A stretch of DNA of 64,000 nt from NCBI GenBank assembly GCA_016201505.1, contig JACQCQ010000002.1, forward strand, positions 76,750 to 140,749. Reading direction: 5' to 3'. Under the pieces are notes generated by a model. It did not search any database and had not been told where the DNA came from. It saw only the letters and a list, made by a program, of their open reading frames with translations. A program made the position numbers and the translations under genes. Each line of letters starts with the position of its first letter. The stretch's first letter is position 1. Below, piece by piece: positions 14,480 to 59,778 of the stretch. The DNA comes from Candidatus Sungiibacteriota bacterium (GTDB lineage: Bacteria > Patescibacteriota > Minisyncoccia > Sungbacterales > JACQCQ01).

Positions 14480-15577
14480 ATGAGATTTCCCCTAGGAGCA
14501 AAACTAAAGCGATTAATCACGACCTTACCCCATAAGGTAAAGGTCGGGAGTCAGTATGTCGGCCAAGGCAAGCCGGTATTTTGCATTGCCGAGATCGGTA
14601 ACAACCACAACGGCGATTTCGAGCTGGCTAAAAGAACGATTGAGGCCGCTAAAGACGCGGGAGCCCAGGCCGTGAAGTTCCAACGCCGAGCCGTAGAAGC
14701 CGTATTTGTGCGCGAGATGCGCGAGATGGCGTACGATAACCCGCGCTCGATGGCTCCAACCTACGGCGAGCATCGAAAAAAGCTTGAACTCCCGATTGAA
14801 CAGCTCCGCGAGTTAAAAGAATTTTCGGAGAGTCTGGGTCTGGTATTTTTTGTGACTCCCTTTGATAAAAAAAGCGCCGACGATCTTGAATCAATCAATA
14901 TTGGGGCCTACAAAATCGCTTCGTTTGATGTGACCAATCTTTCGCTTCTGGGCCATGTTGCTAAAAAGGGCAAGCCGATTCTGCTTTCAACCGGCGGCTC
15001 GACGCTTGAAGAAATAGATACGGCCATTGAGACGATTTTAAAATACAACAATCGGCTGATTGTAAATCACTGCACCTCGATGTATCCCACACCGGATGAG
15101 AATTTAGATTTAAACATGCTGCCGGTATTGCGGGAGCGATATAAACCTTTGCCGATCGGCTACTCGGGGCATGAGCCGGATTTTCTGCCTTCTGTTATCG
15201 CAGTGGCGCTCGGCGCTTCGGCTGTTGAGCGTCATTTTACGATGGACAAAACCATGCGCGGATCGGATCACCACATGTCGATTGAGCCCCCGGAGTTTAA
15301 AAAGATGGTAGATGACATTAGACGAATTACGGTTGCGCTTGGCGCCAAGGAAAAACGCATCCATGCCGGCGAAATTCCCATCCGCGAAAAACATGCTAAA
15401 AGCCTAGCCACCCGTGTCCGCATTCCGAAAGGCGCCGTGATTACGCGCGCGATGCTGACCGTCAAAAGTCCGGGTACGGGGCTCAAGCCCTCGATGGTTG
15501 ATTTCATTGTCGGTAAAACGGCGCGCTACGACATTGACGAGGACGCATTGATTAAAACCGATTCATTTGAAGTCTAG
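14480..15577 (+). CDS. neuB: N-acetylneuraminate/KDN-9-phosphate synthase family (NeuB) with C-terminal SAF domain
   Basis: 365 aa. 'CIAEIGNNHNGDFELAKRTIEAAKDAGAQAVKFQ' is the NeuB signature. A C-terminal SAF (antifreeze-like) domain is present. Confidence 0.8.
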   Translation: MRFPLGAKLKRLITTLPHKVKVGSQYVGQGKPVFCIAEIGNNHNGDFELAKRTIEAAKDAGAQAVKFQRRAVEAVFVREMREMAYDNPRSMAPTYGEHRKKLELPIEQLRELKEFSESLGLVFFVTPFDKKSADDLESINIGAYKIASFDVTNLSLLGHVAKKGKPILLSTGGSTLEEIDTAIETILKYNNRLIVNHCTSMYPTPDENLDLNMLPVLRERYKPLPIGYSGHEPDFLPSVIAVALGASAVERHFTMDKTMRGSDHHMSIEPPEFKKMVDDIRRITVALGAKEKRIHAGEIPIREKHAKSLATRVRIPKGAVITRAMLTVKSPGTGLKPSMVDFIVGKTARYDIDEDALIKTDSFEV

Positions 15578-15582
15578 AAATT

Positions 15583-15609
15583 GAAAATCCGCCGAGAGCG
15601 GATTTTCAA
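15583..15609. terminator. hairpin terminator gaaaatccgccgagagcggattttc
   Basis: A perfect stem flanked by A/T runs, so it can act in either direction. Confidence 0.5.
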
Positions 15610-15765
15610 TTGCAATTTAGCTAATGCTTCGCTATCATTTTGTGGTATGCCAACTCAAGTTTCCCCCAAGTCTAATGCCGATCAATATCACGGAGTGATT
15701 TTGAGAACGGCGGACGTAACAAGGTCGGATAGGAATTTAGGTCTGGGGAAAATTTAAGCGGGTAT

Positions 15766-16347
15766 GAATCCCGTTAGAAGCCGCGATCGCATACACGGGG
15801 TACAATGGTATGAAGCTCCTCAACATGAATAGTTTAACTCGAGCGATAACGCGAATGATCGCGATCTGCTTCTAACGGGATGAATCCCGTTAGAAGCCGC
15901 GATCGCATACACGGGGTACAATGGTATGAAGCTCCTCAACATCCTCAACATGAATAGTTTAACTCGAGCGATAGCGCGGATGATCGCGATCCCGCTACCA
16001 CAAATCCTTCTTGGATCTGGCTACGGGACAAGCATACTATGACAGATGTATTATTAACTACGACTCGCCCCGTAGTCACCGAGTCTATGAGGTGTACTCA
16101 CGGGGTCTGCTTCTAACGGGATGAATCCCGTTAGAAGCCGCGATCGCGAAAACCAATCTTTCCGAGAGTTTATTTTAATACTTAATGTTAGGCAGACTCC
16201 GCGTTTGATCGCGATCCCGCTACCACAAATCCTCCATGGATTTGGCTACGGGACTAGAGAGCTATGACAGGCTTACTATTAACTACGGCTCGCCCCGTAG
16301 TCACCGAGCACGTGAGGTGTACTACTGGGGTCTGCTTCTAAACGGGA
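15766..16347. mobile_element. array of three MITE-like units bounded by the inverted termini GAATCCCGTTAGAAGCCGCGATCGC … GCGATC(T/C)GCTTCTAACGGGAT
   Basis: Unit junctions form 45-bp palindromes (ctgcttctaacgggatgaatcccgttagaagccgcgatcgc). Units 1 and 2 share a 5' module. Units 2 and 3 share a 140-nt 3' module (gatcgcgatcccgctaccacaaatcc…). A solo copy lies at 58884–58994. Confidence 0.6.
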
Positions 16348-18569
16348 TGAATTCAGGCAGGACTCTTGAGATCTGGCTTTCCAATATCGTGAAATGGGGC
16401 CTGTTTTTGATTTTGCCCCTGCCGCTGGTGGTTTGGGGCATCTTTTTATTTCCCTATATCACCGGGCGCAATTTTTTATTTCGCATCTTGATTGAAATTT
16501 TGGCGGCCCTGTGGGTCGGGCTGCTGGTTCTTTCTAAAACCTATCGGCCGCGGCTTACCTGGCTGACGCGCGCGGTCGCGGTCTTTCTGTTTGTCGTGAC
16601 CCTGGCTGACTTGTTCGGCATTAATCCCTATCGCAGTTTTTGGTCGAACAACGAACGCATGGAGGGGCTTATCGCTTTACTCCATATGGTGCTGTTTTAT
16701 TTCATTGCGAGTTCGGTATTTAGAAAGTACACGCACTGGAAAGCGTTTTTCTACACCTCAACGGCTATAAGCTTGTTGGTCGCGCTCTATGGGCTCGCGC
16801 AGAAATTCGGCCTGGCTCAATCTATCCAAGGCGGTACGCGCGTTGATGGAACGATCGGCAATCCGGATTATTTAGCCTCCTATTTGATGTTCCATATTTT
16901 CTTCTTACTCTTTTTTCTCTGGCGTGAACGAATTGCGTTGCTGCGGTGGTTTTCATGGGCGGTGATCGTCTTCGAATTCTACATTATTTATTTAACGGCC
17001 ACGCGGGGGGTTGTGCTCGCCATGCTCACGGCTTTCGGCCTGGTGACAATCGTATTTGCCATCCGCAGGCCGAAAGATCGGGTTGAAAACATTTTACGCC
17101 GGGTTTCTATATCGGCACTCGCCGTCATCATAATCGCGGTCGGTTCAATTTTTCTTCTGCGCCACGACCCGCGTATTTTACAAAATCCGGTGCTTTCGCG
17201 ATTCGCTACCATTTCGACTCAAGATCGGACCGTTCAGTCGCGATTTTTTATATGGCATATCGCTTGGCAGGGAGTAAAAGAGCATCCCGTGCTCGGCTGG
17301 GGTCAGGAGAACTTCTATTACGTGTTTAATAAATATTTTGATCCGCATCTCTGGTCATCGGAGCCGTGGTTCGATCGGTCACACGACATTTTCTTCGACT
17401 GGCTGATTCACGCCGGCGTCTTGGGGCTTCTTTCATATCTTTCGGTTCTGGCCGCCGGGTTTTACACCATCTGGCGGGCGCAAAAGCTAGAGGCGATCTC
17501 TTTCTATGAGATGATGATCCTGGGAGGTGTCTTGCTCGCCTATTTCCTGCAGAATATTTTTGTCTTTGATAATTTCCAGACGTACTTCTTATTGTTTGTA
17601 ACCTTAGGCTTTGCCGAGTTTCTAATACTCCGCGGCGAGGAAAGTAAAACACTGATGGCCCCAGTCGTGCCAAATCGGCTGCCTATGGCGCTTGGTATAA
17701 CATCCGGCGCAGGCATTGTTACACTCATTCTCATTTACCTCTTGAATGTAAAGCCCATGATCGCGTCAGCCGATTTGATCGGTGCATTGCAATTGCAAAG
17801 CCAGCACGCTTCCGTCAACGATGTAAAAGCCCAGTTTCAAAAGGTCTACGATGCGGATACCTTTGTCAGCGGCGAGGCAACGGAGCAGTTAGCCGCCATG
17901 GTACGAGGGGTATTGTCGTCAGCTACGCCGCAGGATGCCAAAAGTTTTATTGACTTTGCTGTTCTCCACCTGCAGGATCTTACTAATATAGCAAATCCGG
18001 ATGCGAAACACCTGCTTTTCCTTGGTTCTGCTTTTAACACGGGCGTCCGATTCGATCAGGCCTATGCCCAAAAGGCTCTCGATGCTCTCAATAAGGCTAA
18101 AAACCTGGCACCCCAAAAACAGCAGATTTATTTTGAACTAGCGAACACGTATTTGATCGCGGGGAATTTAAATGACGCCATCCAGACTCTGCAGCGGGTA
18201 GTGGATCTTGACCCAGCCTACCCAGGGGCAGAGTTAAATCTCGGCATTGTGGCGCTGCTTGCCGCTAGACGCGATATTGCCGATCCGGCCATCGCGAGAT
18301 ACGAAAGTCTTCCCAAAGCGCCGGACGCCAGTGAATTAGAGAGGCTCGTCCAGGTGTATATTCAGGTGAGCGATATGAAAGGCGCGAGACGTGTCATGGA
18401 AGAACTGTTGAAAATCGATGACCGCAACTCACAGTATTGGGCTCAATATGCCGCTATCCTGGCTGCACTGGGCGATAAGACTGACGCCAAAACGGCTGCG
18501 GAAAAAGCGGCCGAAATCGATCCCAGTCTCAACACCGAACTGCAGCAGTTTTTGAAGACGCTTAAATAA
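16347..18569 (+). CDS. O-antigen ligase/polymerase (Wzy_C)-like polytopic membrane protein with C-terminal TPR repeats
   Basis: About 740 aa with many TM helices and a 'TATRGVVLAMLTAFGLV' Wzy_C-like block. The C-terminal 250 aa are TPR-like. The ORF-track start at 16236 lies inside the repeat array, so the ATG at 16347 is preferred. Confidence 0.6.
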   Translation: MNSGRTLEIWLSNIVKWGLFLILPLPLVVWGIFLFPYITGRNFLFRILIEILAALWVGLLVLSKTYRPRLTWLTRAVAVFLFVVTLADLFGINPYRSFWSNNERMEGLIALLHMVLFYFIASSVFRKYTHWKAFFYTSTAISLLVALYGLAQKFGLAQSIQGGTRVDGTIGNPDYLASYLMFHIFFLLFFLWRERIALLRWFSWAVIVFEFYIIYLTATRGVVLAMLTAFGLVTIVFAIRRPKDRVENILRRVSISALAVIIIAVGSIFLLRHDPRILQNPVLSRFATISTQDRTVQSRFFIWHIAWQGVKEHPVLGWGQENFYYVFNKYFDPHLWSSEPWFDRSHDIFFDWLIHAGVLGLLSYLSVLAAGFYTIWRAQKLEAISFYEMMILGGVLLAYFLQNIFVFDNFQTYFLLFVTLGFAEFLILRGEESKTLMAPVVPNRLPMALGITSGAGIVTLILIYLLNVKPMIASADLIGALQLQSQHASVNDVKAQFQKVYDADTFVSGEATEQLAAMVRGVLSSATPQDAKSFIDFAVLHLQDLTNIANPDAKHLLFLGSAFNTGVRFDQAYAQKALDALNKAKNLAPQKQQIYFELANTYLIAGNLNDAIQTLQRVVDLDPAYPGAELNLGIVALLAARRDIADPAIARYESLPKAPDASELERLVQVYIQVSDMKGARRVMEELLKIDDRNSQYWAQYAAILAALGDKTDAKTAAEKAAEIDPSLNTELQQFLKTLK

Positions 18570-18612
18570 TCCCAAAGAAACTTTCTACTTTTCTCGTCGG
18601 TTATAAAGTAGG

Positions 18613-19539
18613 ATGAGACAGCAAAAGCTTGCGGTGGGCGTTGTGGGGGTTGGCATGGTAGGTACGCCCCTAGCTCGCTGGTTTTTAGAACGTCAGGGTT
18701 ACGTGCGCCGGGAGAATCTTTTTTTGTCTGACCTTAAGCCCGAAAAGGAAATGCCCGATGACGTCAATCAAGCTGACGTTATTTTTATTTCAGTTCCCAC
18801 GCCGTCCCTCGGCGATAGATCCTGTGATATCTCGCGGGTGGCACATGCGATCCAATCTATTAGCGGTGAAAAGATTATTGTTATCAAATCGACTGTGCCG
18901 CCCGGAACGACCGAACATTTCCAAAATCTTTATCCAAGACATAAGTTTTTATTTAATCCCGAGAATTTAACCGAACGGAATGCCTGGGAAGATTTTGTCC
19001 GGCCTGACGCCCAGATTGTAGGTTTTACCGAACACGCCAAAGATGCTGCTATGCCGGTCCTGGCGTTATTGCCGAAAGCTCCTTTCATGTCGCCTTGGGG
19101 GATACAGACCTATCGACGAACCAGTATTACGGCCACCGAGGCAGAGATAATTAAATATGCGCGGAACGTGTTTTTTGCGCGTAAGGTGGTCTTCGCCAAC
19201 CTTTTGGCGAAGTTTTCTAAAGCCATGGGCGCGGATTATGAAAACGTGCGCAGTGGCATGTCGGCTGACTTTCGTGTCGGCGACTCGCACCTGGATGTAC
19301 ATCACAACGCTTACCTAGGATTTGGTGGATACTGCTTGCCCAAAGATGTCGACGCGTTTATCGCCGAATTAAAGAAGAAGAATTTGACCAAGGAAGCAGC
19401 CGTCGTTCTGGCTGATCGGGAATATAATCGGAAGCTATTGCTATCCCAGGGCCTTACGCTTGAGGATGCGAGTGTTCATGACGGTGAGTGGATCAAGCGT
19501 AAAATTGCGCAGACGGCATCACTACCTTCCGGCGCGTGA
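18613..19539 (+). CDS. UDP-glucose/GDP-mannose dehydrogenase family protein (short form)
   Basis: 308 aa with an N-terminal 'VGVVGVGMVGTPLA' NAD-binding motif and a central Cys region 'GFGGYCLPKD'. It is shorter than a typical UgdH. Confidence 0.6.
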   Translation: MRQQKLAVGVVGVGMVGTPLARWFLERQGYVRRENLFLSDLKPEKEMPDDVNQADVIFISVPTPSLGDRSCDISRVAHAIQSISGEKIIVIKSTVPPGTTEHFQNLYPRHKFLFNPENLTERNAWEDFVRPDAQIVGFTEHAKDAAMPVLALLPKAPFMSPWGIQTYRRTSITATEAEIIKYARNVFFARKVVFANLLAKFSKAMGADYENVRSGMSADFRVGDSHLDVHHNAYLGFGGYCLPKDVDAFIAELKKKNLTKEAAVVLADREYNRKLLLSQGLTLEDASVHDGEWIKRKIAQTASLPSGA

Positions 19540-20856
19540 AATCACAATCGCAATCGTCTTTAAAAGAATTAAGAGATCCAGCGCAATCGAGCGGTGCGCG
19601 ATGTAGTAGAGCTCATACTGCAACTTCTTGTAGGCGTCTTGAACTGAAGCGTAGTAGTATGGTGGATTAATCTGCGCCCAGCCGGTGAGGCCAGGCAGGG
19701 CGATATGGCGAATATCGTAGAAAGGAATTTCCTTTCGCAGGGGCTCGACAAATTCCGGCCGTTCGGGGCGCGGACCGACAAACGAAAGATTGCCCTGAAG
19801 CACTGCAATTAACTGCGGCAGCTCGTCAATGCGCGTAACCCGCAAAAATTTTCCGACGCGCGTGACTCGGGGGTCATTTTCACCGGCCCACTTGGCGCCG
19901 TTCTGTTCGGCATCAGCAATCATGGAACGGAATTTATAAATTTTAAACAACCTGCCATAACGTCCAACGCGCGTCTGGCCATAGAAAATCGGACCAGGAG
20001 AGTCGAGTCGGATAAGTATCGCCAGAATCGGCGTCGCCAAAGCTGTGGGAATGAGCAAAATTAAAGCGGCGATAATATCAACCAGCCGCTTGAAGAGATC
20101 AAAAACCAGGCGCTTGGTCGCCATAGGATTTTCAAGAAACCACTGCTCCGTGATGAGCGAAATCGGAATCCGCCCCGTATTTTCCTCATAAAACTTGGCA
20201 AAATTTGCTATACGGACACCAAGCGGGATGAGTTCTACGAGTCTTTTGGCGATCGCGCCGTTGGCCGCAACTTGGGGTGAGACAACGACCAGCGAGATTT
20301 TATCTTGTAAAACAAATTCTTTTAAATTTTCAGGAATCGGCGCGGCGTCATCCATAATCTCTGTCACGCGGTAGCCGAGTGCCACATTCTTTTTAAGAGC
20401 ACTAGCGAGCTCAAGTACTTCATCGGTAATTCCCAAAAACAAAACGGACTCGCGCGGGATGGATTTGAATAGCGAGGCAATGATTTGCCGCCAGATAATG
20501 ACCAACATGGCGGAAAGCGCCAGAACCGCGAATAAGTTGAGTTTTGGCGCAATGCCAAAAAATGGAATGAAGTAAAACAAAATAACGCCGACCAGCGCGT
20601 TGATGGTGAAGGCGAGGAGAATGCGCTGGATGAAATCGGCCGCCGAAGAACGAATGATTTCGTAGAGCCCCAAGATGTAAAAAACAATCGCCCAAAAGAA
20701 AAAAAGGATTGAGAAGGGGAGCGCGTGGATGCGGATAGGCAAACCCGTCTCAAGTCCGGCGTAACGAATGAAAAGTACGGCGAAAAGGGAGATATAAAAA
20801 GCTACCAAATCTCCCAGCAGGAGTATCAATTTTCTGGTGTCAGTTGATTGGCTCAT
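19522..20856 (-). CDS. undecaprenyl-phosphate sugar phosphotransferase (WbaP/bacterial sugar transferase family)
   Basis: 444 aa with an N-terminal TM region. The C-terminal 'RIDELPQLIAVLQGNLSFVGPRPERPEFV' motif is conserved in this family. Confidence 0.8.
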   Translation of the reverse strand: MSQSTDTRKLILLLGDLVAFYISLFAVLFIRYAGLETGLPIRIHALPFSILFFFWAIVFYILGLYEIIRSSAADFIQRILLAFTINALVGVILFYFIPFFGIAPKLNLFAVLALSAMLVIIWRQIIASLFKSIPRESVLFLGITDEVLELASALKKNVALGYRVTEIMDDAAPIPENLKEFVLQDKISLVVVSPQVAANGAIAKRLVELIPLGVRIANFAKFYEENTGRIPISLITEQWFLENPMATKRLVFDLFKRLVDIIAALILLIPTALATPILAILIRLDSPGPIFYGQTRVGRYGRLFKIYKFRSMIADAEQNGAKWAGENDPRVTRVGKFLRVTRIDELPQLIAVLQGNLSFVGPRPERPEFVEPLRKEIPFYDIRHIALPGLTGWAQINPPYYYASVQDAYKKLQYELYYIAHRSIALDLLILLKTIAIVISRAGR

Positions 20857-22014
20857 TTAAAGGCCATATACGGCCCGCGTCTTTTCTAGCATGGTTTGAA
20901 GCGAAAAGTCACGCGCCACCGTCTCATACAGCGCTGCGCCATATTTTTCTCGCAATGAGCTATCTTCCAGTAATTTATCAATGGCTGATGCAAAACTTTT
21001 TGGATCTTTGGGGTTAGTGAGTATACCATTTTCGCCGGAGCGAATGATATCCGGAATGCCGCCCACCTTGGTGGCAACCACCGGCACTCCGGCGAGGCCC
21101 GCTTCTAAGATCGCGTAGGGCAGACCTTCTTTTATCGATGACATAGAAAATATATTGAAGGCTCTTATAAGCCGTGCGGCATCAGGCACAAAACCGGCAA
21201 AAAATACGCGCTGGTTCAGTTTTAGTTGATCAACTATGTGGGTTAATATTTCTTGTTCCTCACCATCGCCGATGATAATAAGTTTGAACATTCCTTTTAC
21301 ATTGGCTGCGGCCTCAAGCAGGGTCTCATAGTCTTTATTTTTCGTCAGCTCACCGTTGGCGCCGATCCAGACCTCGTCCGATAGAGCCGTGATCTCCGCG
21401 CCATATCGCTGGTTTATGATTGTCTGCAGCTCCTTCCGGGCTCCTTCCCGGTCAAGGAATGGTAGATATAACTCAGGATTTACTCCGATAGGAATATAGT
21501 GAATCTTTTTACCGACAAAAGGCATTTGTTTTCCTATAACAAAGTCGCATTTCGTAATCACGATAGTTTTATGCGCCAGCAATGACGTGATCCAGGAAAA
21601 AAACCAAATTATTATCTTTTGCCATCGGGGCCGATCTTCTAAAAACGTCCAGCCGTGAACGGTAACAATGATACGGGACACACCGAGCATTCGTCCGGCC
21701 AGCGCCCCCAGGCCGGCCATTTTGGCGCTATTGGCATGCAGGACATCGGGCCGCAATGTTTTTAAAACTTGATAGATCTTGGTGAAAACACGGTATTCGG
21801 AGCTTCGGATGTCTCGCTCTAATCCCCCGATTGTTTCAACGCGGATATTTTTTTCTTGCAGTTGGTTTGCCAGCAGACCCCACTCACCCAGAACTACCGA
21901 GATTTGGTTCTTGCGACCCCCAAAATGGCTCGCTAAAGTAAACACATAGCGCTGTGCCCCTCCCCAGGTGCCTTTGGTGATGGCAAACACAATGTGTGTA
22001 CGCCCTTTTTGCAT
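20857..22014 (-). CDS. glycosyltransferase family 4 (GT4)
   Basis: 385 aa with a GT-B C-terminal 'EGLPYAILEAGLAGVPVVATKVGGIPDII' motif (E-X7-E region). Confidence 0.75.
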   Translation of the reverse strand: MQKGRTHIVFAITKGTWGGAQRYVFTLASHFGGRKNQISVVLGEWGLLANQLQEKNIRVETIGGLERDIRSSEYRVFTKIYQVLKTLRPDVLHANSAKMAGLGALAGRMLGVSRIIVTVHGWTFLEDRPRWQKIIIWFFSWITSLLAHKTIVITKCDFVIGKQMPFVGKKIHYIPIGVNPELYLPFLDREGARKELQTIINQRYGAEITALSDEVWIGANGELTKNKDYETLLEAAANVKGMFKLIIIGDGEEQEILTHIVDQLKLNQRVFFAGFVPDAARLIRAFNIFSMSSIKEGLPYAILEAGLAGVPVVATKVGGIPDIIRSGENGILTNPKDPKSFASAIDKLLEDSSLREKYGAALYETVARDFSLQTMLEKTRAVYGL

Positions 22015-50675: not shown

Positions 50676-51133
50676 CGTTCATCATGGGGAAGGTCAGTAC
50701 GACTTCCCCTCCACAATTCAGGTACATACAAACATAAGTCGAATCGCAAATGGTTCGGCAGGCTCACCACAAGTGAATCTGTCGAACTTTCTCTCGATGA
50801 TTCTTGAGACTCGTAATTACATTACTTGTCCCGAGCGAAGTCGAGGGATCTCACTCGTTCTCTGATGAATGTCAGAGGACAAGAAAATAAAAAGCGGTTA
50901 TTAAGGGCGCATGGTGGATGCCTTGGCTTTAAACAGCGATGAAGGACGTAGCGTGCTTGCGATAAGCATCGGGGAGGTGGCGAGCAACCTTTGATCCGGT
51001 GATGTCCGAATGGGGAAACCCTAGGGGAGTAATGTTCCCTAACCCGTCGTGTAATAGCGATGTGGAGTCAACCTGGTGAAGTGAAACATCTCAGTAACCA
51101 GAGGAAAAGAAAACAAGTTGCTTCGCAACTTTT

Positions 51134-51203
51134 ATCAGCGAATAGCGAATCCCGTACGAATAAGCGAATTCGTTTATTCGAAAAGATTCGTAATTCGTTG
51201 ATG
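51134..51203 (+). repeat. IVS hairpin element copy A (71 nt)
   Basis: The sequence is atcagcgaatagcgaatcccgtacgaataagcgaattcgtttattcgaaaagattcgtaattcgttgatga. It is identical to the copy at 55191–55261. Confidence 0.75.
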
Positions 51204-51610
51204 ATCGAGCGCAGTGAACATTCCGTCAGTAGCGGCGAGCGAACGCGGAACAGCCTAGAGGAATCAGTTTGCTAGTTTACTAGTTCGCTGGTTCCAGTTG
51301 TAAGTTTAGTTCGTAAAAGAGCAATCTTTTGAAGAGTGTAAAAATTAAGACTTCGTTAGGAGAATGGTCCTGGAACGGCCAACCACAGAAGGTAATAGTC
51401 CTGTACACGAAAACGGTCTTATACTCTTGGAACTTTACTTGAGTACTGCCCAGTATGACGACTGGGTAGGAAGCAGGGAGAACTAGTCTCCCAAGGCTAA
51501 ATATGTTTAAAGACCGATAGTGAACCAGTACCGTGAGGGAAAGGTGAAAAGCAGCCCGGTGAGGGCGGTGAAATAGTACCTGAAACCATGTGCTTACAAG
51601 GAGTCGGAGC

Positions 51611-52110
51611 TCGCTTCGCTGACGAAGCGGTAGATTCAAAATCTTAAAACTGCAAAATCAAATATTTCCTTTTGTGTATCTGAATTGAAAAAATAAGGAG
51701 GTGTCAATGGCATACCCCCAAGATGAAATCGCACGCCTGCGGGAAATGCTGCGGCTTGATCAGATGTCGCCGGAAGAGCTGGTACGGTTTCTTAAACTGT
51801 TTTGGGAGATTACGGAGAGCAAGGTTCTCGAGCGCGGCGCCGAAGGCAAGGATGTCTTTAACGCCGGGTTGGCTGAATGGCTGCTCACGATTGCTGTAGT
51901 TGCCATCGTGCGGTCTTTTATTGATCGCGCTGACAAGAGAGCGATTGTCCGAACCCTCAAAGCCTCGTTACCGGCGAAGATTTGGGAAGTTTGCCGGCCG
52001 CTTTGCGAGCCCTTGCTCTCAATTCCCGGGGAGTGATCCGTCAGCCGACGGACTCCCCGTTCAATTCAGATACATAAAAATAGTTTTGAATTTTGTAGTT
52101 TAGTTTTTAA
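51611..52110 (+). mobile_element. helix-25 intervening sequence carrying a 110-aa ORF, flanked by perfect 12-bp inverted repeat gtatctgaattg / caattcagatac
   Basis: The insertion follows 'cttacaaggagtcggagc', the classic H25 IVS site. The inverted repeats lie at 51682–51693 and 52060–52071. Confidence 0.6.
51707..52036 (+). CDS. hypothetical 110-aa protein encoded inside 23S rRNA IVS (MAYPQDEIARLREML…)
   Basis: It has a strong RBS (AAGGAGG, 5 nt spacer). It is followed by the hairpin gatccgtcagccgacggactcccc. No known homing-endonuclease motif. Confidence 0.45.
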   Translation: MAYPQDEIARLREMLRLDQMSPEELVRFLKLFWEITESKVLERGAEGKDVFNAGLAEWLLTIAVVAIVRSFIDRADKRAIVRTLKASLPAKIWEVCRPLCEPLLSIPGE

Positions 52111-52389
52111 ATTTAGCGACGCGTCAGCGGAGCGAGTAACGGCATGCCTATTGAAGAATGAGCCAACGAGTGTATGGAGATTGCTTGCTTAACCCCGCCC
52201 TTTGCGCAGTAGCGCAAAAGGCGGAACTGACAGTCTACAGTCTACCGACTACAGCAGATGTTGTTGTTCATGCGGTAGTCAGTAGTCCGTGGTCAGTAGT
52301 CCGCCCCTTGTTAGTGAACAAAGGACGGGGGGAGGCGCAGGGAAACCGAGTGTTAACAGCGCGTAAGCACCTCACTTTGTTCGGTGCCT

Positions 52390-52461
52390 ATCAGCGAATA
52401 TCGAATCCAAAACGAATAAACGAATTCGTTTATTCGAAAAAGATTTGTAATTCGTTGATGA
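52390..52461 (+). repeat. IVS hairpin element copy B (~90% identical to A)
   Basis: atcagcgaatatcgaatccaaaacgaataaacgaattcgtttattcgaaaaagatttgtaattcgttgatga. Confidence 0.7.
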
Positions 52462-53030
52462 CCGAGCGAAGCGAGGCTGCATGTAGTCTTCATACGACCC
52501 GAAACCAAGTGAGCTACCCATGGGCAGGGTGAACTTTGAGTAACATCAAAGGGAGGCCCGAACCGGTTGGTCGTACAACGCCTTCGGATGACCTGTGGGT
52601 TGGAGTGAAAAGCTAATCGAACTTGGAAATAGCTGGTTCTCTTCGAAATAGCTTTAGGGCTAGCGTCAAATCACACCGTAATGGAGGTAGAGCACTGGAT
52701 GGACTGTAATGGGGCAACCCAGGCAGTCCAATCAAACTCCGAATGCCGTTACGCGTTATTTTGGCAGTCAGCAGGCGGGGGCTAAGCTCCGTCGTGCAAG
52801 AGGGAAACAGCCCAGACCGCCGATTAAGGTCCCTAAATCAATGCTAAGTGTATAAGGCGGTGGAATTTTTAAAACAGCGAGGAGGTTGGCTTAGAAGCAG
52901 CCATCCTTTAAAGAGTGCGTAACAGCTCACTCGTCAAAAGATTCTGCGCCACAAATGTAGCGGGGCTAAGCATTGTACCGAAGTCGCGGGTTGCGCGCTT
53001 CACTTTTGTTCAGCGCGCTCATCATCGAAT

Positions 53031-53116
53031 AGCGAATCACGAACGAATAAACGAATCACCATAACCGTATTCGTATATTCGCAGCAAATTCGTTATTCGC
53101 TGATAGAGCGCCGAGC
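53031..53116 (+). repeat. helix-45 IVS hairpin (diverged palindromic variant)
   Basis: The sequence is atcatcgaatagcgaatcacgaacgaataaacgaat…attcgttattcgctgatag. It lies at the canonical H45 IVS position, between 'gaagtcgcgggttgcg' and 'gagcgccgagcagc'. Confidence 0.6.
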
Positions 53117-54034
53117 AGCAGCGAGGCGCGTAACGGTAGAAGAGCATTTGCATCAGCAGTGAAGGAGGACCCGCGAGGGCCTCTGGAGCGGTGCGAAGAG
53201 AGAATGTTGGCACTAGTAACCGCAAGTTAGGTGAGAATCCTAACCGCCGAAAGTCCAAGGTTTCCTTGGCAATGCTAATCAGCTAAGGGTTAGTCGGTCC
53301 TAAGGGAATGGTGAAAACCGCACCCGATGGATACACGGTTAATATTCCGTGACTCGAGTTTTGATCGATGGCGGGACGGAGCGTTGTACATTCTATGGAT
53401 TATTGGATTTCCATTTCTGTTATGAGGAAAGCGCGTAGGCAAATCCGCGCGCTGGGTTAGACCCGCTTCCAAGTAATGGGATAATGCGTTTCTTCGGATT
53501 CGCAAATAGAAAGGAGCACGCTTCCCAGAAAAACGTCTAAGATTATCTTGACTCGAACCGTACCGCAAACCGACACAGGTGGACTAGTGGAGAACACTAA
53601 GGCGAACGGGTGAGACCTCGTTAAGGAACTCGGCAAAAAAGCGGCCGTAAGTTCGCAATAAGGCCTGCCTCATTGAGGCTGATAGAAGGAAAGAAAGCAC
53701 TGCACAGTGTTGGTTTTTGAATTTGTGTTTTGTGCAACGTATTCTCGAAAAGCGTTTGCATTTGTTCCAGCGACAAATGCAACTCGCCAAGCTCGCAAAA
53801 ACTTTTTGTTTCGACAAAAAGACCAAGCTTTTCGCTCGCTTGAGCGTTTTCTTAAATACGTTTGCACCGATATGGATTCTTGATCGAACACTGTGCAGTG
53901 CAAAAGAGAAAGGGCAGATTTTTGCTGATGCAAAAATCTGAAACTAGAAAACTAGAGCCGCGAAAGCGGCGTAACTAGAAAACTATAGTTGTAACTCTGA
54001 ATTGCGGAGTTAAATAGTTCGCTGGGGAAAAGGT

Positions 54035-54130
54035 ATGAACTCGCAAGGAGAAGTAACGCCACTGGCGTTGATGGGACTTGCGACCGTTTTTGCCATATAT
54101 CTTCTCTGCCAGCTCATCTGGGCGGGATAG
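54035..54130 (+). CDS. 31-aa hydrophobic mini-peptide MNSQGEVTPLALMGLATVFAIYLLCQLIWAG
   Basis: An RBS-like 'ggggaaaagg' precedes it. It lies inside the rRNA insertion. Confidence 0.3.
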   Translation: MNSQGEVTPLALMGLATVFAIYLLCQLIWAG

Positions 54131-54142
54131 TGGAGGATATGA

Positions 54143-54271
54143 ATGTCCAGGCTGGCGGCATATCCGCTGTTCCTTGTCTGTTGGACTCCGTTCATGATTG
54201 TGATCGGGTTCATCATCGGGATCATGATCGAGCGATCGGGTCGGATTCTTGCGGCCGAGGAGGAGGTATGA
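54143..54271 (+). CDS. 42-aa single-TM mini-peptide MSRLAAYPLFLVCWTPFMIVIGFIIGIMIERSGRILAAEEEV
   Basis: The RBS 'tggagga' precedes it. Its stop overlaps the next start (ATGA). Confidence 0.35.
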   Translation: MSRLAAYPLFLVCWTPFMIVIGFIIGIMIERSGRILAAEEEV

Positions 54272-54390
54272 GAACAGCCATCGGTTTTATGATCACTATT
54301 GGGATCATGGCTGCTGTTGTGATCATCGATCGGTGGTGCAAGCGGCGCCTGCCGATGCGCGGCATCTTCGGGCCGTATCGGCAGGCATAA
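54268..54390 (+). CDS. 40-aa single-TM mini-peptide MRTAIGFMITIGIMAAVVIIDRWCKRRLPMRGIFGPYRQA (paralog of previous)
   Basis: The RBS 'gaggaggagg' precedes it. It shares the 'IGF.I.IGIM' core with the upstream peptide. The hairpin gatccgtcagttgacggagactcccc follows. Confidence 0.35.
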   Translation: MRTAIGFMITIGIMAAVVIIDRWCKRRLPMRGIFGPYRQA

Positions 54391-55190
54391 GGAGACGAGG
54401 GAGTGCGATCCGTCAGTTGACGGAGACTCCCCCAACCCTACTAAAAATGTAGGGCCGCAATTCAGGGTTACAACAGGTCTAAGTTTAGGCGCGATTGCGC
54501 GAGCGAGCGGTAAGTTCTTAAAGAAAGGAGAAGTACGCGGACCGAAGAGGATCTGCCGAATCGAGGGCAGCACATGTGCATACCGGAGTAGTCGACGGTC
54601 ATTCGGCAAGACCTTACGCCCCTCCGCATAGTTCTTTGATCGCTCGTGCAAAAAAATATGGAGGGCGCAGACCTTCGGGTCTCGGTATAGGCAGGTAGCC
54701 TGCCCCTCCGCCATTCGCCAACTGGTGAAGCCAACTGGTGAAGCCAACTGGTGAACTCGAGCAGAGAGTCTCCCGCCAGGGTCTCTTCTCTGTAAAAGAT
54801 GGGCGGTCCCGCCGCCCGTTACTCGAGCACCCCAGCGGCCTCCCTAGCCCGGGGCCGCTGGGGTTCGAAAATCACTATGTCGGGCGCGACGTGAGCTCTC
54901 CTGGTAGGGGATTGCGTCGACTCACCCGGCAGAACGCGGCGGCGGTTCCCCCCGGAGCCGCCGCCGTCGTAAACACTTTTCTCTTATTTTTCTCCTCGAA
55001 ATTCGAAGTCGGATTTCGATCCTTCTATCAGCCTCTTTGAGGCCGCAGCGAAAGATTCTCTGGCGACTGTTTACCAAAAACACAGGTCCCTGCTAAACAC
55101 GTAAGTGGATGTATAGGGGCTGACGCCTGACCAATGCGAGAAGGTTAAAGATTGTGGTTGCTTCGCTCTTGCTTCGTAACATCAGCGAAT

Positions 55191-55261
55191 AGCGAATCCC
55201 GTACGAATAAGCGAATTCGTTTATTCGAAAAGATTCGTAATTCGTTGATGAAAAGCTGTGG
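55191..55261 (+). repeat. IVS hairpin element copy C (identical to copy A)
   Basis: The 71-nt sequence is identical to 51134–51203. Confidence 0.75.
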
Positions 55262-55329
55262 AGCGTGAGCGGAGCAGCTAACGGTCCCAAGCCCTCGTCA
55301 ATGTCAGCGATAACTATAAGTAACGATTG

Positions 55330-56140
55330 TAGTTATAAAATTTGGCTATATGTTCCCAATTTGTCTGCGAGCGTTAGCGAGTGGCTAACAAATCGCAATC
55401 CCGTGGCCTTACAGTCACGAGACAAAACAAATTCGGGAAACCCGAAGTCACGCCGCGCAATACGAAAGTGTTGGTTGCGGGGGAAGGCTTTGGGGACTGG
55501 AAAACCCGCGAATGCAGAAGTACTTCAATACCACGTAGTATTGAAGTAACAATCTTCTGCCGATTCGTGAAGGTAAGATGGATGTATTCCGCTCGCAATA
55601 TGAACGGATGTATCCGCCGAAGCCTTGGCGAAGGCGGACAATCAGCAGGAAAGATTCTAATTGGTAAAAATTAGAAAATCCTCAGAGACTACACGCCAAA
55701 CTCTTCAATGCACTCGAGTCTGTCGAGCTAATTGGATAGATGATATAGTCCGAACTCTATGGTGACATAGAGAGTTGACCCGAGAGAGGGTCAGAGTAAC
55801 ACTAAATGAATCGTTCTAAGGTGAATAACACTGCCTTAGTAAAATCTAGCTATATCGGTGAACACCTTACACTTTAATACTTTAAAGTATTAAAGTGTAA
55901 GACAATACCGAGGCAACCCCGCCAAAATTTTGCACGAGCAAAACTTAGGCGGGTGAGTCCGTAGAGACTACACGCTAGACTCCAATCCGCAGTTGGCGGA
56001 GGAGAAGATATAGTCCGGCCTCTATGGCGACATAGAGAGATGCAGAGAAATCGTGCATCCGGATTCATGATTCATAATTCTTGCTTGCCCTTCCGTAGCT
56101 CTAGAGAGCAAAGGAGGGATTCATGATTCTAGTAACAATT
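55330..56140 (+). mobile_element. ~0.8-kb ORF-less insertion (group I intron-like) at the 23S 1917–1931 (I-CeuI site) region
   Basis: It interrupts 'taactataa | …gcgtaattccttgtcgggtaag'. It contains an internal ~100-nt duplication (55680–55800 versus 55958–56060). It also contains the 36-bp perfect palindrome cttacactttaatactttaaagtattaaagtgtaag (55866–55901). Confidence 0.45.
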
Positions 56141-56739
56141 CGAGCGTAATTCCTTGTCGGGTAAGTTCCGACGTGCACGAAAGGCGTAACGACTGGAGAA
56201 CTGTCTCAACGAGGTGCCCGGTGAAAATACAATATCGGTGAAGATGCCGATTACCCACAGATAGACGAAAAGACCCCGGGAGCTTTACTGCAGCTTGATA
56301 TTGGCAATGAATACTTTATGCGTAGCATAGATGGGAGACTTTGAAGTCGTGGTTTCGGCCATGATGGAGTCGCCAGTGAAATACCATTCTTAAAGAATTC
56401 TTTGTCTAACTTGTAGAGACGAAACTCTATGCAGACAGTGTCTGGCGGGCAGTTTAAGTGGGGCACTTGCCTCCCAAAAAGTAATGGAGGCGTTTATTAA
56501 GGTTGGCTAGCGCCGGATGGAAATCGGCGTCGTCCCGTAAAGGGAAATGCCAGCTTGACTGCAAGGCGGGTATGCCGCGCAGGTGCGAAAGCAGAACTTA
56601 GTGATCCGATGGCTATGGTTGTTTAGTTTACTAGTTTCGGTCTTTATTGACCTACTGGTTTTCTAGTTTTCGAACTAGTTAACTAGAAAACTGGTGAACT
56701 GATCAATTTCTTGCTAGAACAAGGCCAAAGCTCATCAGC

Positions 56740-56770
<31 letters not shown>

Positions 56771-56903
56771 GCTTCCAAGAGTTCATATCGACGAAGCGGT
56801 TCGGCACCTCGATGTCGGCTCGGCTTATCCTGGAGGTGGAGAAGCTTCCAAGGGTTTGGCTGTTCGCCAATTAAAAAGTCACGCGAGCTGGGTTCAAACC
56901 GTC

Positions 56904-57741
56904 AACAAAAGAACCCGAAAATGACATCGAAACATTCAACAAGTTTTTGATAGGAGCTTGTTTGAAACACACGGCGGCCCCTGGTAGCAATGCCGGGGAG
57001 CGAAACCCGTAGAATCCCAAGGGGGTCCGGGTAAGAAAACCGACTCATATCGATGAAATCCACGTATGCATTCAACCTGTCATATGTTAGGATAATATCG
57101 AGGGAAGTCGTGTATGTTGCAATCGTTAACGCAAAATCAAAGGGCATATATTGCAGGTTTTCTTGATGGAGATGGAAGCATTTATGTGCGAGCAAAACCA
57201 AACCCTACTTATCGGTTTGGCTTTCAAATTGCTCCATATATAGTATTTTTCCAGTCACAATCTAGTCAGGAAAGATTTGGGGAGATATGCAAGTTGATTA
57301 GCGTGGGACATTTACGCATTCGAAGTGACGGTATTCTTGAGTACATCATAAATCGTATTGATGAAATCAAGATGTTGCTGGAATGTGTTCGTCCCTTCGC
57401 AATTCTCAAAAGGCGACAGATAGATTTGATGTTGAAAATAATTGAATCAAAGTCGCAAGTAGAGAACGAAGACGATTTTGAGAAACTTCTTCAACTAGTA
57501 AATTCTTATCGAGAATTAAACTATTCTAAGAAGAGAAAGCAACGTTCATTGACCCCGTAGAGACTTGTCGTGAAAGCGGCAGAGTAATTCAGAAATGATT
57601 TGCTAACACGTCGGTCACCCATTAAATGTAGATACTGTTTAATGGGTTGGTGGTATAGTCCAATCCCTCTAGTAATAGAGGAAGGTTAAGCATTTAGTAA
57701 CCTTAATTCTTGACTCTAAATTCTTAATTCTAGTAAACAGC
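56904..57741 (+). mobile_element. group I-type intron at 23S position 2593 (I-CreI homing site) encoding a LAGLIDADG endonuclease
   Basis: The exon junction is 'gggttcaaaccgtc | gtgagacaggttgg', which corresponds to the E. coli sequence AACGTC^GTGAGACAG. Confidence 0.7.
57114..57560 (+). CDS. single-motif LAGLIDADG homing endonuclease, I-CreI-like
   Basis: The motif is 'YIAGFLDGDGSIYVRAKPNPTYRFGFQ'. Overall similarity extends to I-CreI ('LAGFVDGDGSIIAQIKPNQSYKFKHQ…LVLKIIE' versus 'IDLMLKIIE'). Confidence 0.8.
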   Translation: MLQSLTQNQRAYIAGFLDGDGSIYVRAKPNPTYRFGFQIAPYIVFFQSQSSQERFGEICKLISVGHLRIRSDGILEYIINRIDEIKMLLECVRPFAILKRRQIDLMLKIIESKSQVENEDDFEKLLQLVNSYRELNYSKKRKQRSLTP

Positions 57742-58500: not shown

Positions 58501-58621
58501 TTTGCTATTTGCTGGTGTCTTTCATCTTTTGGGTACCACCCCTTCCCATTCCGAACAGGGCCGTTAAACCAAAAGTAGCCGATGATACTCGGAGGTTTAG
58601 CCTCCCGGGAAAGTAGGTGAT
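58501..58621 (+). rRNA. rrf: 5S ribosomal RNA
   Basis: '…gggtaccaccccttcccattccgaacagggccgttaaacc…gccgatgatactcggagg…gggaaagtaggtgatgccagcat' aligns with the 5S consensus. This includes helix I pairing of gctggtg with caccagc. Confidence 0.6.
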
Positions 58622-58883
58622 GCCAGCATATAAAAGATTTGGTTCGGGGACCCCGAGCAATCGCTCCCGCGATATTTGGAGGCAGGGGGCAGGGTCTCAC
58701 TTCGGAAAGCATAGCAGGGCGAAGTCCCGCATCGAGCTTTGCTCTGGTGCGGGATAGCTGCCGCCAGAACAATGCTTTTTATTTTTCCCACGAAGTGGGA
58801 AAAATAACCCTGAGCGCAGTTGAAGGGTCACACTATTCTCATTATTCCTAATTCCTGATTCATAATTCATAATGAAGGGCATG

Positions 58884-58994
58884 GATCCCGTTAGAAGCCG
58901 CGATCGTCGAATGATAGGATAAAATATAACTGATTTAAATATCATTAACACTACGCAGATTCCGCGCAGAATCGCGATCTGCTTCTAACGGGAT
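58884..58994. mobile_element. solo MITE-like element of the 15766–16347 family
   Basis: atcccgttagaagccgcgatcg…(60 nt)…gcgatctgcttctaacgggat. Its 3' terminus ends at the ATG of the next gene. Confidence 0.6.
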
Positions 58995-59778
58995 GGACTG
59001 GCGTACCGCTCGACAATTGACCGTGATTTTTATCGCCGTTTTGGTTGTCGGCGGCATTCTTTTTTTTCTCACCTACGGCTATTTCCATCAGCCGGCATCG
59101 TGTACTGATAACAAGAAAAATCAGGGAGAAGAAGAAGTTGATTGCGGCGGCCCCTGCGAGCCGTGCGCCTTCAAGCATCAAAAGCCAGCAGAAGTTTTTT
59201 TCGCCCGAGTTTTGCCGTTGCGGCCGGGGAACTATGATGTCGTGGCTGAAATTCAAAATCCCAATGATCATTTAGCAGCGAATCCCTTAGCCTATCGGGT
59301 GCATGTGTTTGATGATCACGGAGTTGAAATTGCAACGCGGGAAAATCTAACCTTCGCCTATCCCAGTGACAAGATCTATATCGTTGAAAGCAACTTTCTA
59401 ACCGAGCGCAAACCAGTTCACGCGAGCCTTGAAGTCATTGACCAGGCAACTTTGTGGACATTCACCAATGACTTGCGTCCGGAATTTCAAATTGGCAATA
59501 AAACCTATGTAGTTTCGGCCGACAATGAGGTCAAAGTGACGGCTGATGTGATGAGTCGAGCTGATTTTGGGTTTAATCAAGTTGAAATCCGGGTGGCCCT
59601 GCTCGACAACGCGGGAAATGTCGTAGGGGCGGCTAAAACCATTCTGGATCATGTGAGTCCCCGCCAGTCTCGGCGGGTTGAATTTACCTGGCCGCAGGCG
59701 CCACAAGATTTGGTGGCTCACGTCGACATTGAAGCCAAAGCCAACGGCCTCGATAAAACCAATGTCTTTCTGCCGTAG
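58993..59778 (+). CDS. hypothetical membrane-anchored/secreted protein
   Basis: 261 aa with an N-terminal TM helix and a Cys-rich 'CGGPCEPCAF' segment. Confidence 0.45.
   Translation: MDWRTARQLTVIFIAVLVVGGILFFLTYGYFHQPASCTDNKKNQGEEEVDCGGPCEPCAFKHQKPAEVFFARVLPLRPGNYDVVAEIQNPNDHLAANPLAYRVHVFDDHGVEIATRENLTFAYPSDKIYIVESNFLTERKPVHASLEVIDQATLWTFTNDLRPEFQIGNKTYVVSADNEVKVTADVMSRADFGFNQVEIRVALLDNAGNVVGAAKTILDHVSPRQSRRVEFTWPQAPQDLVAHVDIEAKANGLDKTNVFLP

Follow-up and report, generated by a model that had tools for sequence, protein, structure and literature searches.

The Correia (NEMIS) elements of Neisseria are units of ~100–150 bp lacking an open reading frame (ORF), the 26-bp terminal repeats of which give a long hairpin in the transcript; they are co-transcribed, duplicate a short target (TA) and occur in many copies near gene starts, at a variable distance from the genes. 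We know of no coding partner of these elements. Comparable units are described here from a 64,000-nt stretch of Candidatus Sungiibacteriota bacterium (contig JACQCQ010000002.1; the whole stretch is referred to as the window, and positions are counted from its first letter), where three of them form an array directly before an O-antigen-ligase-like gene and a fourth one stands alone. They resemble the Correia elements in size, absence of an ORF, hairpin-forming termini, short target duplication and abundance near gene starts, but differ in that the start codon itself (ATGRN) serves as the target, the units are oriented with the gene, and the partner is a GIY-YIG nuclease gene. Judging from the sequence, the array and the solo copy probably represent ORF-less members, similar to MITEs (miniature transposable elements with inverted repeats), of a mobile family that inserts at start codons, is associated with GIY-YIG genes and is widespread in Patescibacteria.

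A further parallel is offered by REPs and REPINs: like the units, they are short non-autonomous hairpin repeats presumably moved in trans by one small hairpin-recognizing enzyme of the nuclease type. This enzyme, RAYT, is an HUH/Y1 protein encoded by a single-copy gene flanked by REPs, whereas in the present family the repeats enclose the candidate enzyme gene, which is present in multiple copies; REPINs are extragenic and follow no start-codon rule. Rickettsia palindromic elements are likewise palindromic, ~100–150 bp long and invade genes of reduced genomes without killing them. These elements are inserted in frame within ORFs and translated, whereas the units are located at the start codon, have lengths not divisible by three and never occur within an ORF.

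Among coding systems, the free-standing GIY-YIG homing endonuclease genes seg and mob of T4-like phages (PMC2988022) resemble the full-length form of the family, a cassette described below, in being selfish GIY-YIG genes located between host genes, with no intron or intein, and expressed in dependence on their neighbors. Seg and Mob contain a DNA-binding domain and, through the repair of double-strand breaks, home to a single cognate site, while the cassette encodes a bare 94-aa catalytic domain (full-length relatives, of 93–95 aa, have the GIY-YIG domain and no separate DNA-binding domain), is found at many unrelated target genes rather than at one cognate site, and features inverted termini, target duplication and ORF-less derivatives. 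The cassette protein has its nearest solved relatives in UPF0213 (1zg2 and 1ywl) and, next, in the structure-specific endonuclease SLX1; such UPF0213/SLX1-like proteins are, like the cassette protein, minimal GIY-YIG domains (~95–107 aa). Stand-alone SLX1-like GIY-YIG proteins have been described as vertically inherited repair proteins, the selfish members of the superfamily being derived from a UvrC-like lineage, and the SLX1 lineage lacks the C-terminal Asn (PMC1564403). The cassette clade, in contrast, behaves as a mobile gene and has an invariant C-terminal Asn (N84).

Units of the window and their family

The 14-nt inverted termini ATCCCGTTAGAAGC…GCTTCTAACGGGAT are common to four units of the window, three of them abutting (15768–16348) and one solitary. 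Exact matches to ATCCCGTTAGAAGC, including its complement, number seven in the window against 0.37 expected, and none of 100 shuffles gave seven or more. Unit 1 (U1; 15768–15881, on the plus strand like all features below; 114 nt) is ORF-less and consists of the left arm ATCCCGTTAGAAGC-CGCGATCGC, an A-rich interior and the right arm GATCGCG-ATCT-GCTTCTAACGGGAT. Unit 2 (U2; 15884–16122; 239 nt) is U1-like, with a 9-nt internal duplication, and carries a nested foldback module, termed module B (15992–16105), placed inside the ATCT bulge with TC/TC flanks. Unit 3 (U3; 16125–16348; 224 nt) has a different interior plus its own copy of module B (16217–16330; 84% identical to that of U2). The solo unit (58885–58994; 110 nt) has the same termini and a different interior. 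The frame from the upstream ATG ends after 9–51 codons in these units of 110–239 nt, which leaves them no coding capacity.

The initial annotation had recognized three units with inverted termini and a modular interior, and both are real: U1 and the 5′ part of U2 are 96–98% identical, and a 142-nt 3′ module is common to U2 and U3 (85% identity). Its 45-bp near-perfect palindrome at each junction was roughly right, since the U1–U2 and U2–U3 junctions are perfect palindromes of 14+2+14 nt, the extension of which to ~47 bp is imperfect (96%). The arms are perfect over 14 nt in three of the four units; the exception is the right arm of U3, written TAAACGGGAT, with one extra A (a 1-nt insertion or bulge; bulge variant GCTTCTAAACGGGAT), a feature recurring in other genomes. 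In predicted folds, U1 forms a terminal stem (−44.8 kcal/mol, z = −5.0), the solo unit folds at −38.2 kcal/mol (z = −3.9), and the host AUG is base-paired.

The last terminus of the array had been said to supply the ATG of the gene that follows, and it does: the last two bases of U3 (AT) together with G16349 form the start codon of the host gene (16347–18569), which encodes an O-antigen-ligase-like (Wzy_C) and TPR protein (Pfam Wzy_C, E = 1.2e-21). A protein of a Candidatus Sungbacteria metagenome-assembled genome (MAG), identical to it over its full 740 aa (P0001; 100% identity and coverage), is annotated from this very ATG. The solo unit, as was also claimed, ends at the ATG of its gene, a 261-aa ORF (58993–59778) located upstream of RodA/FtsW and without a Pfam match, where the ATG again consists of the last two bases of the unit and a G. 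Directly upstream of every unit of the window stands ATGA or ATGG, so that the start codon is duplicated. The upstream target copy is ATGAA for the array (15764–15768), where it marks the original start position of the Wzy gene, and ATGGA for the solo unit (58881–58885), the downstream copy of the latter (58993–58997) being ATGGA as well. A new copy would land in the ATGAA copy flanking an older unit and thereby build a tandem array; the single ATGAA found at each junction is expected if a new copy enters the duplicated target beside an older unit.

Related foldback modules may nest inside the units, as module B in U2 and U3. This module is ~114 nt long, has CCCG…CGGG ends of its own and sits in the ATCT bulge of the carrying element. 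Its copies show 78–85% identity across several genomes (78–80% for locus L009, 7356–7468; L019, 3–115; and L040, 4091–4211), and the L009 copy is itself split by a further related element. Among five copies of module B, no pair with compensatory change was found.

The search for the family covered one genome per species, the query being the terminus plus eight partly degenerate bases. A check for further copies and for target-site duplications, proposed with the initial annotation, yielded both: at least 116 further loci were found, most of them labeled as Patescibacteria, of many lineages, or simply as “bacterium”, with ATGRN duplicated. The carriers named among the matches listed are Paceibacteria, Saccharibacteria and Levy-, Nomura-, Kerfeld-, Sung-, Terry- and Wildermuthbacteria; a scan of viral contigs for the element gave no match. 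From these data ~130 oriented units were extracted (modal length 113–124 nt; lengths modulo three distributed 34/46/40 in 120 units). Read on the gene strand, the plan is ATGR, ATCCCGTTAGAAGC-CGCGATCGC, ~70 nt of variable A-rich sequence, GATCGCG-ATCT-GCTTCTAA(±A/G)CGGGAT, then GR, a layout yielding a 14-bp stem, a 4-nt ATCT bulge and a 7-bp stem. Each terminal position is paired in 87–100% of 149 units.

Overall, these short units (family A) display the descriptive hallmarks of MITEs: small size, no coding capacity, terminal inverted repeats, target duplication, dispersed copies and presence/absence polymorphism. As to the partner of a MITE, ORF-bearing relatives with the same terminal core exist, the enzyme encoded by them being a GIY-YIG nuclease and not a known transposase.

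Two side observations concern the interiors. In L005, L024, L048, L089 and L092 (units of 133–140 nt), a short GC-rich palindrome, CCTGCC(G)GCAGGCAGG, separates the two stems of the left arm, the units being normal in other respects; it may be a third tiny mobile module. A related element with the termini CCCCGTTAGAAAG…CTTTCTAACGGGG is found within family-A interiors (L064, 1246–1450; L090; L103, 828–1033) with TAAA-like flanking repeats, showing that the family is able to insert at non-ATG sites where the insertion is neutral.

Target duplication at start codons and evidence for mobility

The four bases upstream of the unit read ATGA in 54 of 120 units and ATGG in 16, and the base preceding the unit equals the second base following it in 97 of the 120. 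Furthermore, the first base of the unit co-varies with the third downstream base (G accompanies G in 10 of 17 cases, against a background of 14%). Because the flanks match and the bases after both ATGs co-vary, the duplication is ATGRN, with a modal length of 5 nt and a range of 4–6. It is complete (5/5) in 82 of 132 units and extends to four of the five positions in another 18; variant targets are duplicated as well, and most of the apparent exceptions represent one-base register shifts. Elements nested in neutral places have other targets (ATAAA, TAAA, GTAC), likewise duplicated.

Of 120 units, 102 have a terminal AT that, completed by the following G, starts an ORF with 60 codons or more; the corresponding numbers for the other two frames are 3 and 8. 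The 18 exceptions are for the most part tandem units or units standing before short real genes such as rpmJ. The genes behind the units are unrelated and many are essential, including those for the ribosomal proteins L2, L3, L13, L15, L18, L19, L22, L24, L29, L36 and S4 as well as GlyRS, PheT, TopA, MurG, FtsZ, DnaA, NrdR, Adk, RsmH, SOD, GAPDH and ThyA. After in silico excision of the units, a census of ATGRA sites placed 298 of them on ORF starts, with another 926 in non-coding and 3,607 in coding sequence. If only coding insertions were purged, 24–39% of the units would be expected on starts, while ~85% are observed there; no ORF contains any of the ~130 units, even though coding sequence holds ~75% of the ATGRA sites.

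Mobility is further indicated by comparisons between copies. In one MAG, copies with 94–96% identity stand at the starts of rpmC, rplX and adk, with a fourth copy at 88–90%. Orthologous glycosyltransferase genes of two Levybacteria provide a filled site (L004, …ATATGA[unit]GAGAGTC…) and an empty one (L039, …GAGAATGAAAGTA…). For the loci of the window itself there is no same-species comparison, since the closest relatives of the Wzy protein are just 52–53% identical; a metagenome scan with this protein for empty sites returned relatives of at most 36% identity, none carrying the element, and an exact look-up of the NeuB protein encoded nearby gave no record. The original proposal of non-autonomous, MITE-like elements at gene starts is thus borne out by the inverted termini, the duplicated target and the ~130 copies in many genomes before unrelated genes, with additional support from the near-identical copies at different genes, the filled/empty pair and the ORF-bearing relatives with the same termini.

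The GIY-YIG cassette and a proposed mechanism

At locus L021, a 279-nt unit with the termini ATCCCGTTAGAGAC…GTCTCTAACGGGAT is open over 94 codons from the upstream ATG, and its TGA overlaps the ATG of the downstream host gene. The product (MNPVRD…RFLSLTG, followed by the stop) is a GIY-YIG domain (PF01541, E = 1.2e-16, 61 bits). A homology search with this protein returned 2,296 clusters, the top ones among the matches listed being mostly 93–95 aa long. In an alignment of 30 homologs the proteins start with MNPVRD and end with RFLSLTG, and the catalytic residues are invariant, the invariant positions being Y11, Y13, Y24, G26, R32, H38, E58 and N84. The first and the last five codons of the gene (ATG AAT CCC GTT AGA … TCT CTA ACG GGA TGA, encoding MNPVR…SLTG and the stop) are mutually reverse-complementary; these codons constitute the terminal inverted repeats. 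In seven of seven further full-length genes checked, the same 4-nt ATGA overlap with the next gene was found, and in two of the seven the previous gene is overlapped too. Bac_transf, GT1, SmpB, a tRNA synthetase and hypothetical genes follow the full-length cassettes. The initial annotation overlooked the upstream duplicate of the ATG, the second, nested module and the GIY-YIG gene, in which the termini find their explanation.

The pairing of the ends is evidently maintained. At the three distal positions, more than ten complementary combinations occur (AGC/GCT, GAT/ATC, AAG/CTT, GAC/GTC, AAT/ATT, AGT/ACT, GGT/ACC and AAA/TTT among them). In full-length genes, amino acids are altered in favor of the pairing, as in L132 (AGAGGC/GCCTCT, D6G together with S91P), L147 (CCTG/CAGG) and L141 (ACCCCG/CGGGGT), and synonymous third positions are identical in 75% of cases in the terminal codons vs. 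45% in the internal ones. The terminal pairing is under selection and is kept by compensatory change. In the L141 cassette (1201–1485), the compensatory termini coincide with GTG, in place of ATG, as the start codon of the host SmpB gene.

These findings can be accommodated by the following scheme. The complete form of the family would be a cassette of ~285 bp comprising nothing but the 94-codon GIY-YIG nuclease gene. The upstream ATG copy starts the frame of the element, and the downstream copy, with its AT donated by the right arm, stays the start of the host gene. In complete cassettes, the overlap of the nuclease stop with the host start as ATGA has the classic geometry of termination–reinitiation, so that the two genes may be translationally coupled. 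The short units would have kept the termini and added the 7-bp second stem and the 4-nt ATCT bulge, the gene being replaced by ~70 nt of A-rich filler. The SLX1/UPF0213-like nuclease would act on the terminal hairpin or cruciform to move the element, in the case of short units probably in trans. The identity of the units as mobile elements related to the nuclease cassettes is held with high confidence; the role of the nuclease as the mobilizing enzyme, the basis of the start-codon preference and the route of host expression are what the sequences lead us to infer.

For the host genes behind short units, two routes of expression are plausible. Ribosomes that enter at the upstream ATG, or arrive from the preceding cistron, may melt the stem hiding the real AUG; alternatively, an internal outward promoter may give a transcript without the left arm, as supported by −10-like hexamers clustering 38–47 nt upstream of the host ATG (a candidate promoter). 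It had been suggested that the elements may donate translation or promoter signals; in partial agreement, the last two bases of the element are the AT of the host ATG, and these hexamers are putative promoter boxes. At the upstream ATG, conservation has fallen to 77% (A), 79% (T) and 68% (G), as against 93% for the downstream G; this lower conservation argues against a mechanism that strictly needs the upstream ATG.

A bolder and more tentative proposal is that the 94-codon gene with self-complementary ends may be a complete autonomous transposon of ~285 bp, the smallest known and the first with a GIY-YIG (SLX1/UPF0213-like, structure-specific) transposase. It would find start codons by reading more than the DNA sequence and remain harmless by way of host translational coupling, its ORF-less derivatives being retained since the host start has joined the hairpin. 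No description of these elements, their terminal sequences included, was found in the full-text literature searched, which does not cover subscription journals. If the reading of the family given here holds, it would represent a mobile element targeting the start codon, the one gene position where an insertion can be silent, before essential genes of highly reduced genomes. It would also offer a candidate minimal autonomous element with a single 94-codon gene, imply a new enzymology of DNA mobility and recast a part of the UPF0213/SLX1-like family, previously thought to consist of vertically inherited repair proteins. Dozens of essential genes per lineage with the AUG buried in a 21-bp stem would provide a handle on initiation free of Shine–Dalgarno motifs in Patescibacteria. 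On the practical side, the units will interfere with gene calling and with the prediction of start codons in Patescibacterial MAGs.

Still, several observations weigh against a family mobilized by the nuclease. To our knowledge, no GIY-YIG enzyme acts as a transposase. Family A and the nuclease genes have in common just the terminal core of 11–12 nt, and the second stem and the bulge of family A are absent from the nuclease genes, so that derivation of the former by deletion is unsupported. Short and full forms were seen together only at L021, where they lie 1 kb apart, and at L110, where a decayed gene lies 28 nt upstream of a short unit; a full-length nuclease gene was looked for in the window and none was found. 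The duplication length of 4–6 nt is unusual for a fixed staggered cut, and ~11% of the units have no upstream ATG copy. A wider target motif beyond ATG-R-A was sought and not found, leaving the start-codon preference unexplained by a DNA motif. Finally, in old copies the termini are far better conserved than the interiors, so there could be a function in situ beyond mobility.

Alternative readings and neighboring genes

This last point leads to the possibility that the units are domesticated cis-acting RNA devices, the stem of which is kept for gating the host start by translational coupling, as a thermometer or as an RNase III site. As an account of the family it is unlikely, although several observations fit it: the termini are nearly invariant and the interiors near random between copies, the AUG is paired in the predicted fold, and on the sense strand A prevails in the interior (43% A vs. 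29.5% T). With the left arm come stops in both of the frames not used by the element; the TGA of the first ATGA terminates eleven upstream genes, and nine others read into the left arm and end with …SR at the TAG (within GTTAG) of GTTAGAAG (L011, L021, L028, L037, L043, L045, L077, L096 and L103), so that the insertion replaced the original C-termini of these nine. In addition, no clear Shine–Dalgarno motif was detected at 28 plus-strand gene starts of the window, and several of its genes have TAnAAT-like (−10-like) boxes 6–12 nt before the ATG (e.g., at 24961, 62886, 5328 and 41222), which suggests leaderless or Shine–Dalgarno-independent initiation. Against such a device, the downstream genes have no function in common, their orthologs in related genomes manage without the element, family A lacks interior structure and covariation, and the counts of G·U vs. 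A·C mismatches (13 vs. 8 outside position 1) give no signal distinguishing RNA from DNA. Moreover, it accounts for the retention of the units and not for their origin, and as such is compatible with start-codon-inserting mobile elements.

It seems quite improbable that these are classical MITEs mobilized by some unrelated and still unseen DDE or HUH transposase, with the GIY-YIG gene as cargo or as a host gene that acquired the termini. In favor of this view, inverted termini together with a short direct duplication characterize elements driven by a transposase, GIY-YIG enzymes are not known to be transposases, and family A and the nuclease genes have just the terminal core in common. In ~1 Mb of flanking sequence, however, no terminus pair more than 450 nt apart and enclosing an ORF was found, nor any transposase or long element of the DDE type; the long terminus pairs were chance 9-mer matches, and the candidate at L045 contains ordinary genes. 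The nuclease ORF takes up the whole element, end to end, and its terminal codons co-vary for pairing, as those of cargo would not, and the termini are carried by many nuclease genes (2,296 homologous clusters, the ends being checked in the 30 aligned). The palindrome-associated elements derived from IS200/IS605 possess two separate subterminal hairpins, one per end, and neither terminal inverted repeats nor a duplication; in the units, one end pairs with the other and the target is duplicated.

Site-specific recombination is very improbable. It would involve a circular form with a lox/dif-like site having arms of 12–13 bp (GCTTCTAACGGG / CCCGTTAGAAGC) and a 6-bp overlap ATGAAT, a host tyrosine recombinase and an overlap left on both sides. 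The tandem junction GCTTCTAACGGG-ATGAAT-CCCGTTAGAAGC does have the arm–spacer–arm layout, and the “duplication” shows a strong consensus and not a random sequence. Yet the duplications vary, both copies following the target (ATGAG, ATGCG, ATGTC and ATAAA, or GTAC for nested copies), no arm-like sequence is present at target sites, and no recombinase gene is associated with the elements (a scan of 10 neighboring genes revealed no integrase). Integron attC sites, recombined by the IntI integrase, have the order R″-L″…L′-R′ (RYYYAAC…GTTRRRY) with the crossover at G/TT; in the units, the core-site order is reversed (GTTAGAA in the left arm, TTCTAAC in the right arm) and the split is at the palindrome center instead of G/TT.

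A structured non-coding RNA array (riboswitch, ribozyme or processed small RNA), which the initial annotation had put forward as its alternative, or a set of intervening sequences cut from mRNA is hardly credible: the units are in tandem and fold much better than shuffles (z = −3.9 to −6.3), but the window region has no Rfam match at the gathering score or even at E ≤ 10, the RNAalifold consensus of 71 units retains the terminal stem alone (covariation term −0.18), both strands of the unit fold equally well, the downstream genes form no regulon, and removal from mRNA is argued against because intervening sequences should be tolerated in ORFs, where no unit lies despite mostly coding sites, and because the unit lengths are not multiples of three.

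Several narrower candidates were tried and rejected. A tRNA-like or minihelix reading of the junction fails since solo units have no junction and ARAGORN finds nothing, and a bulge–helix–bulge intron does so since it would need a 4-bp helix between two 3-nt bulges, which the stem does not have. A genome-wide role of HIP1 (GCGATCGC) as a signal was discarded with six sites against 2.7 expected, three of the six being inside units. Coupling through the stop of an upstream ORF was dismissed because the upstream frame stops at variable places and just a minority reaches ATGA; translational bypass between the two AUGs is unlikely given that the upstream ATG decays while the downstream G is conserved.

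The array is located within a surface-polysaccharide cluster (14480–22014) comprising genes for NeuB, Wzy_C, UDP-glucose dehydrogenase, a sugar transferase and GT1. Of the seven full-length cassettes located through their protein, four (L132, L137, L143 and L147) likewise stand before glycosyl- or sugar-transferase genes; this shared setting may reflect the frequent exchange of such clusters. Elsewhere in the 64-kb window, neither a 16S rRNA gene nor any tRNA gene was found. The match to the large-subunit rRNA (50889–57560) spans 6.1 kb for a model of 2,987 nt, pointing to ~3 kb of insertions, and the 5S gene is at 58511–58628. An ORF for a LAGLIDADG endonuclease (57114–57560) lies just 3′ of the large-subunit rRNA match.

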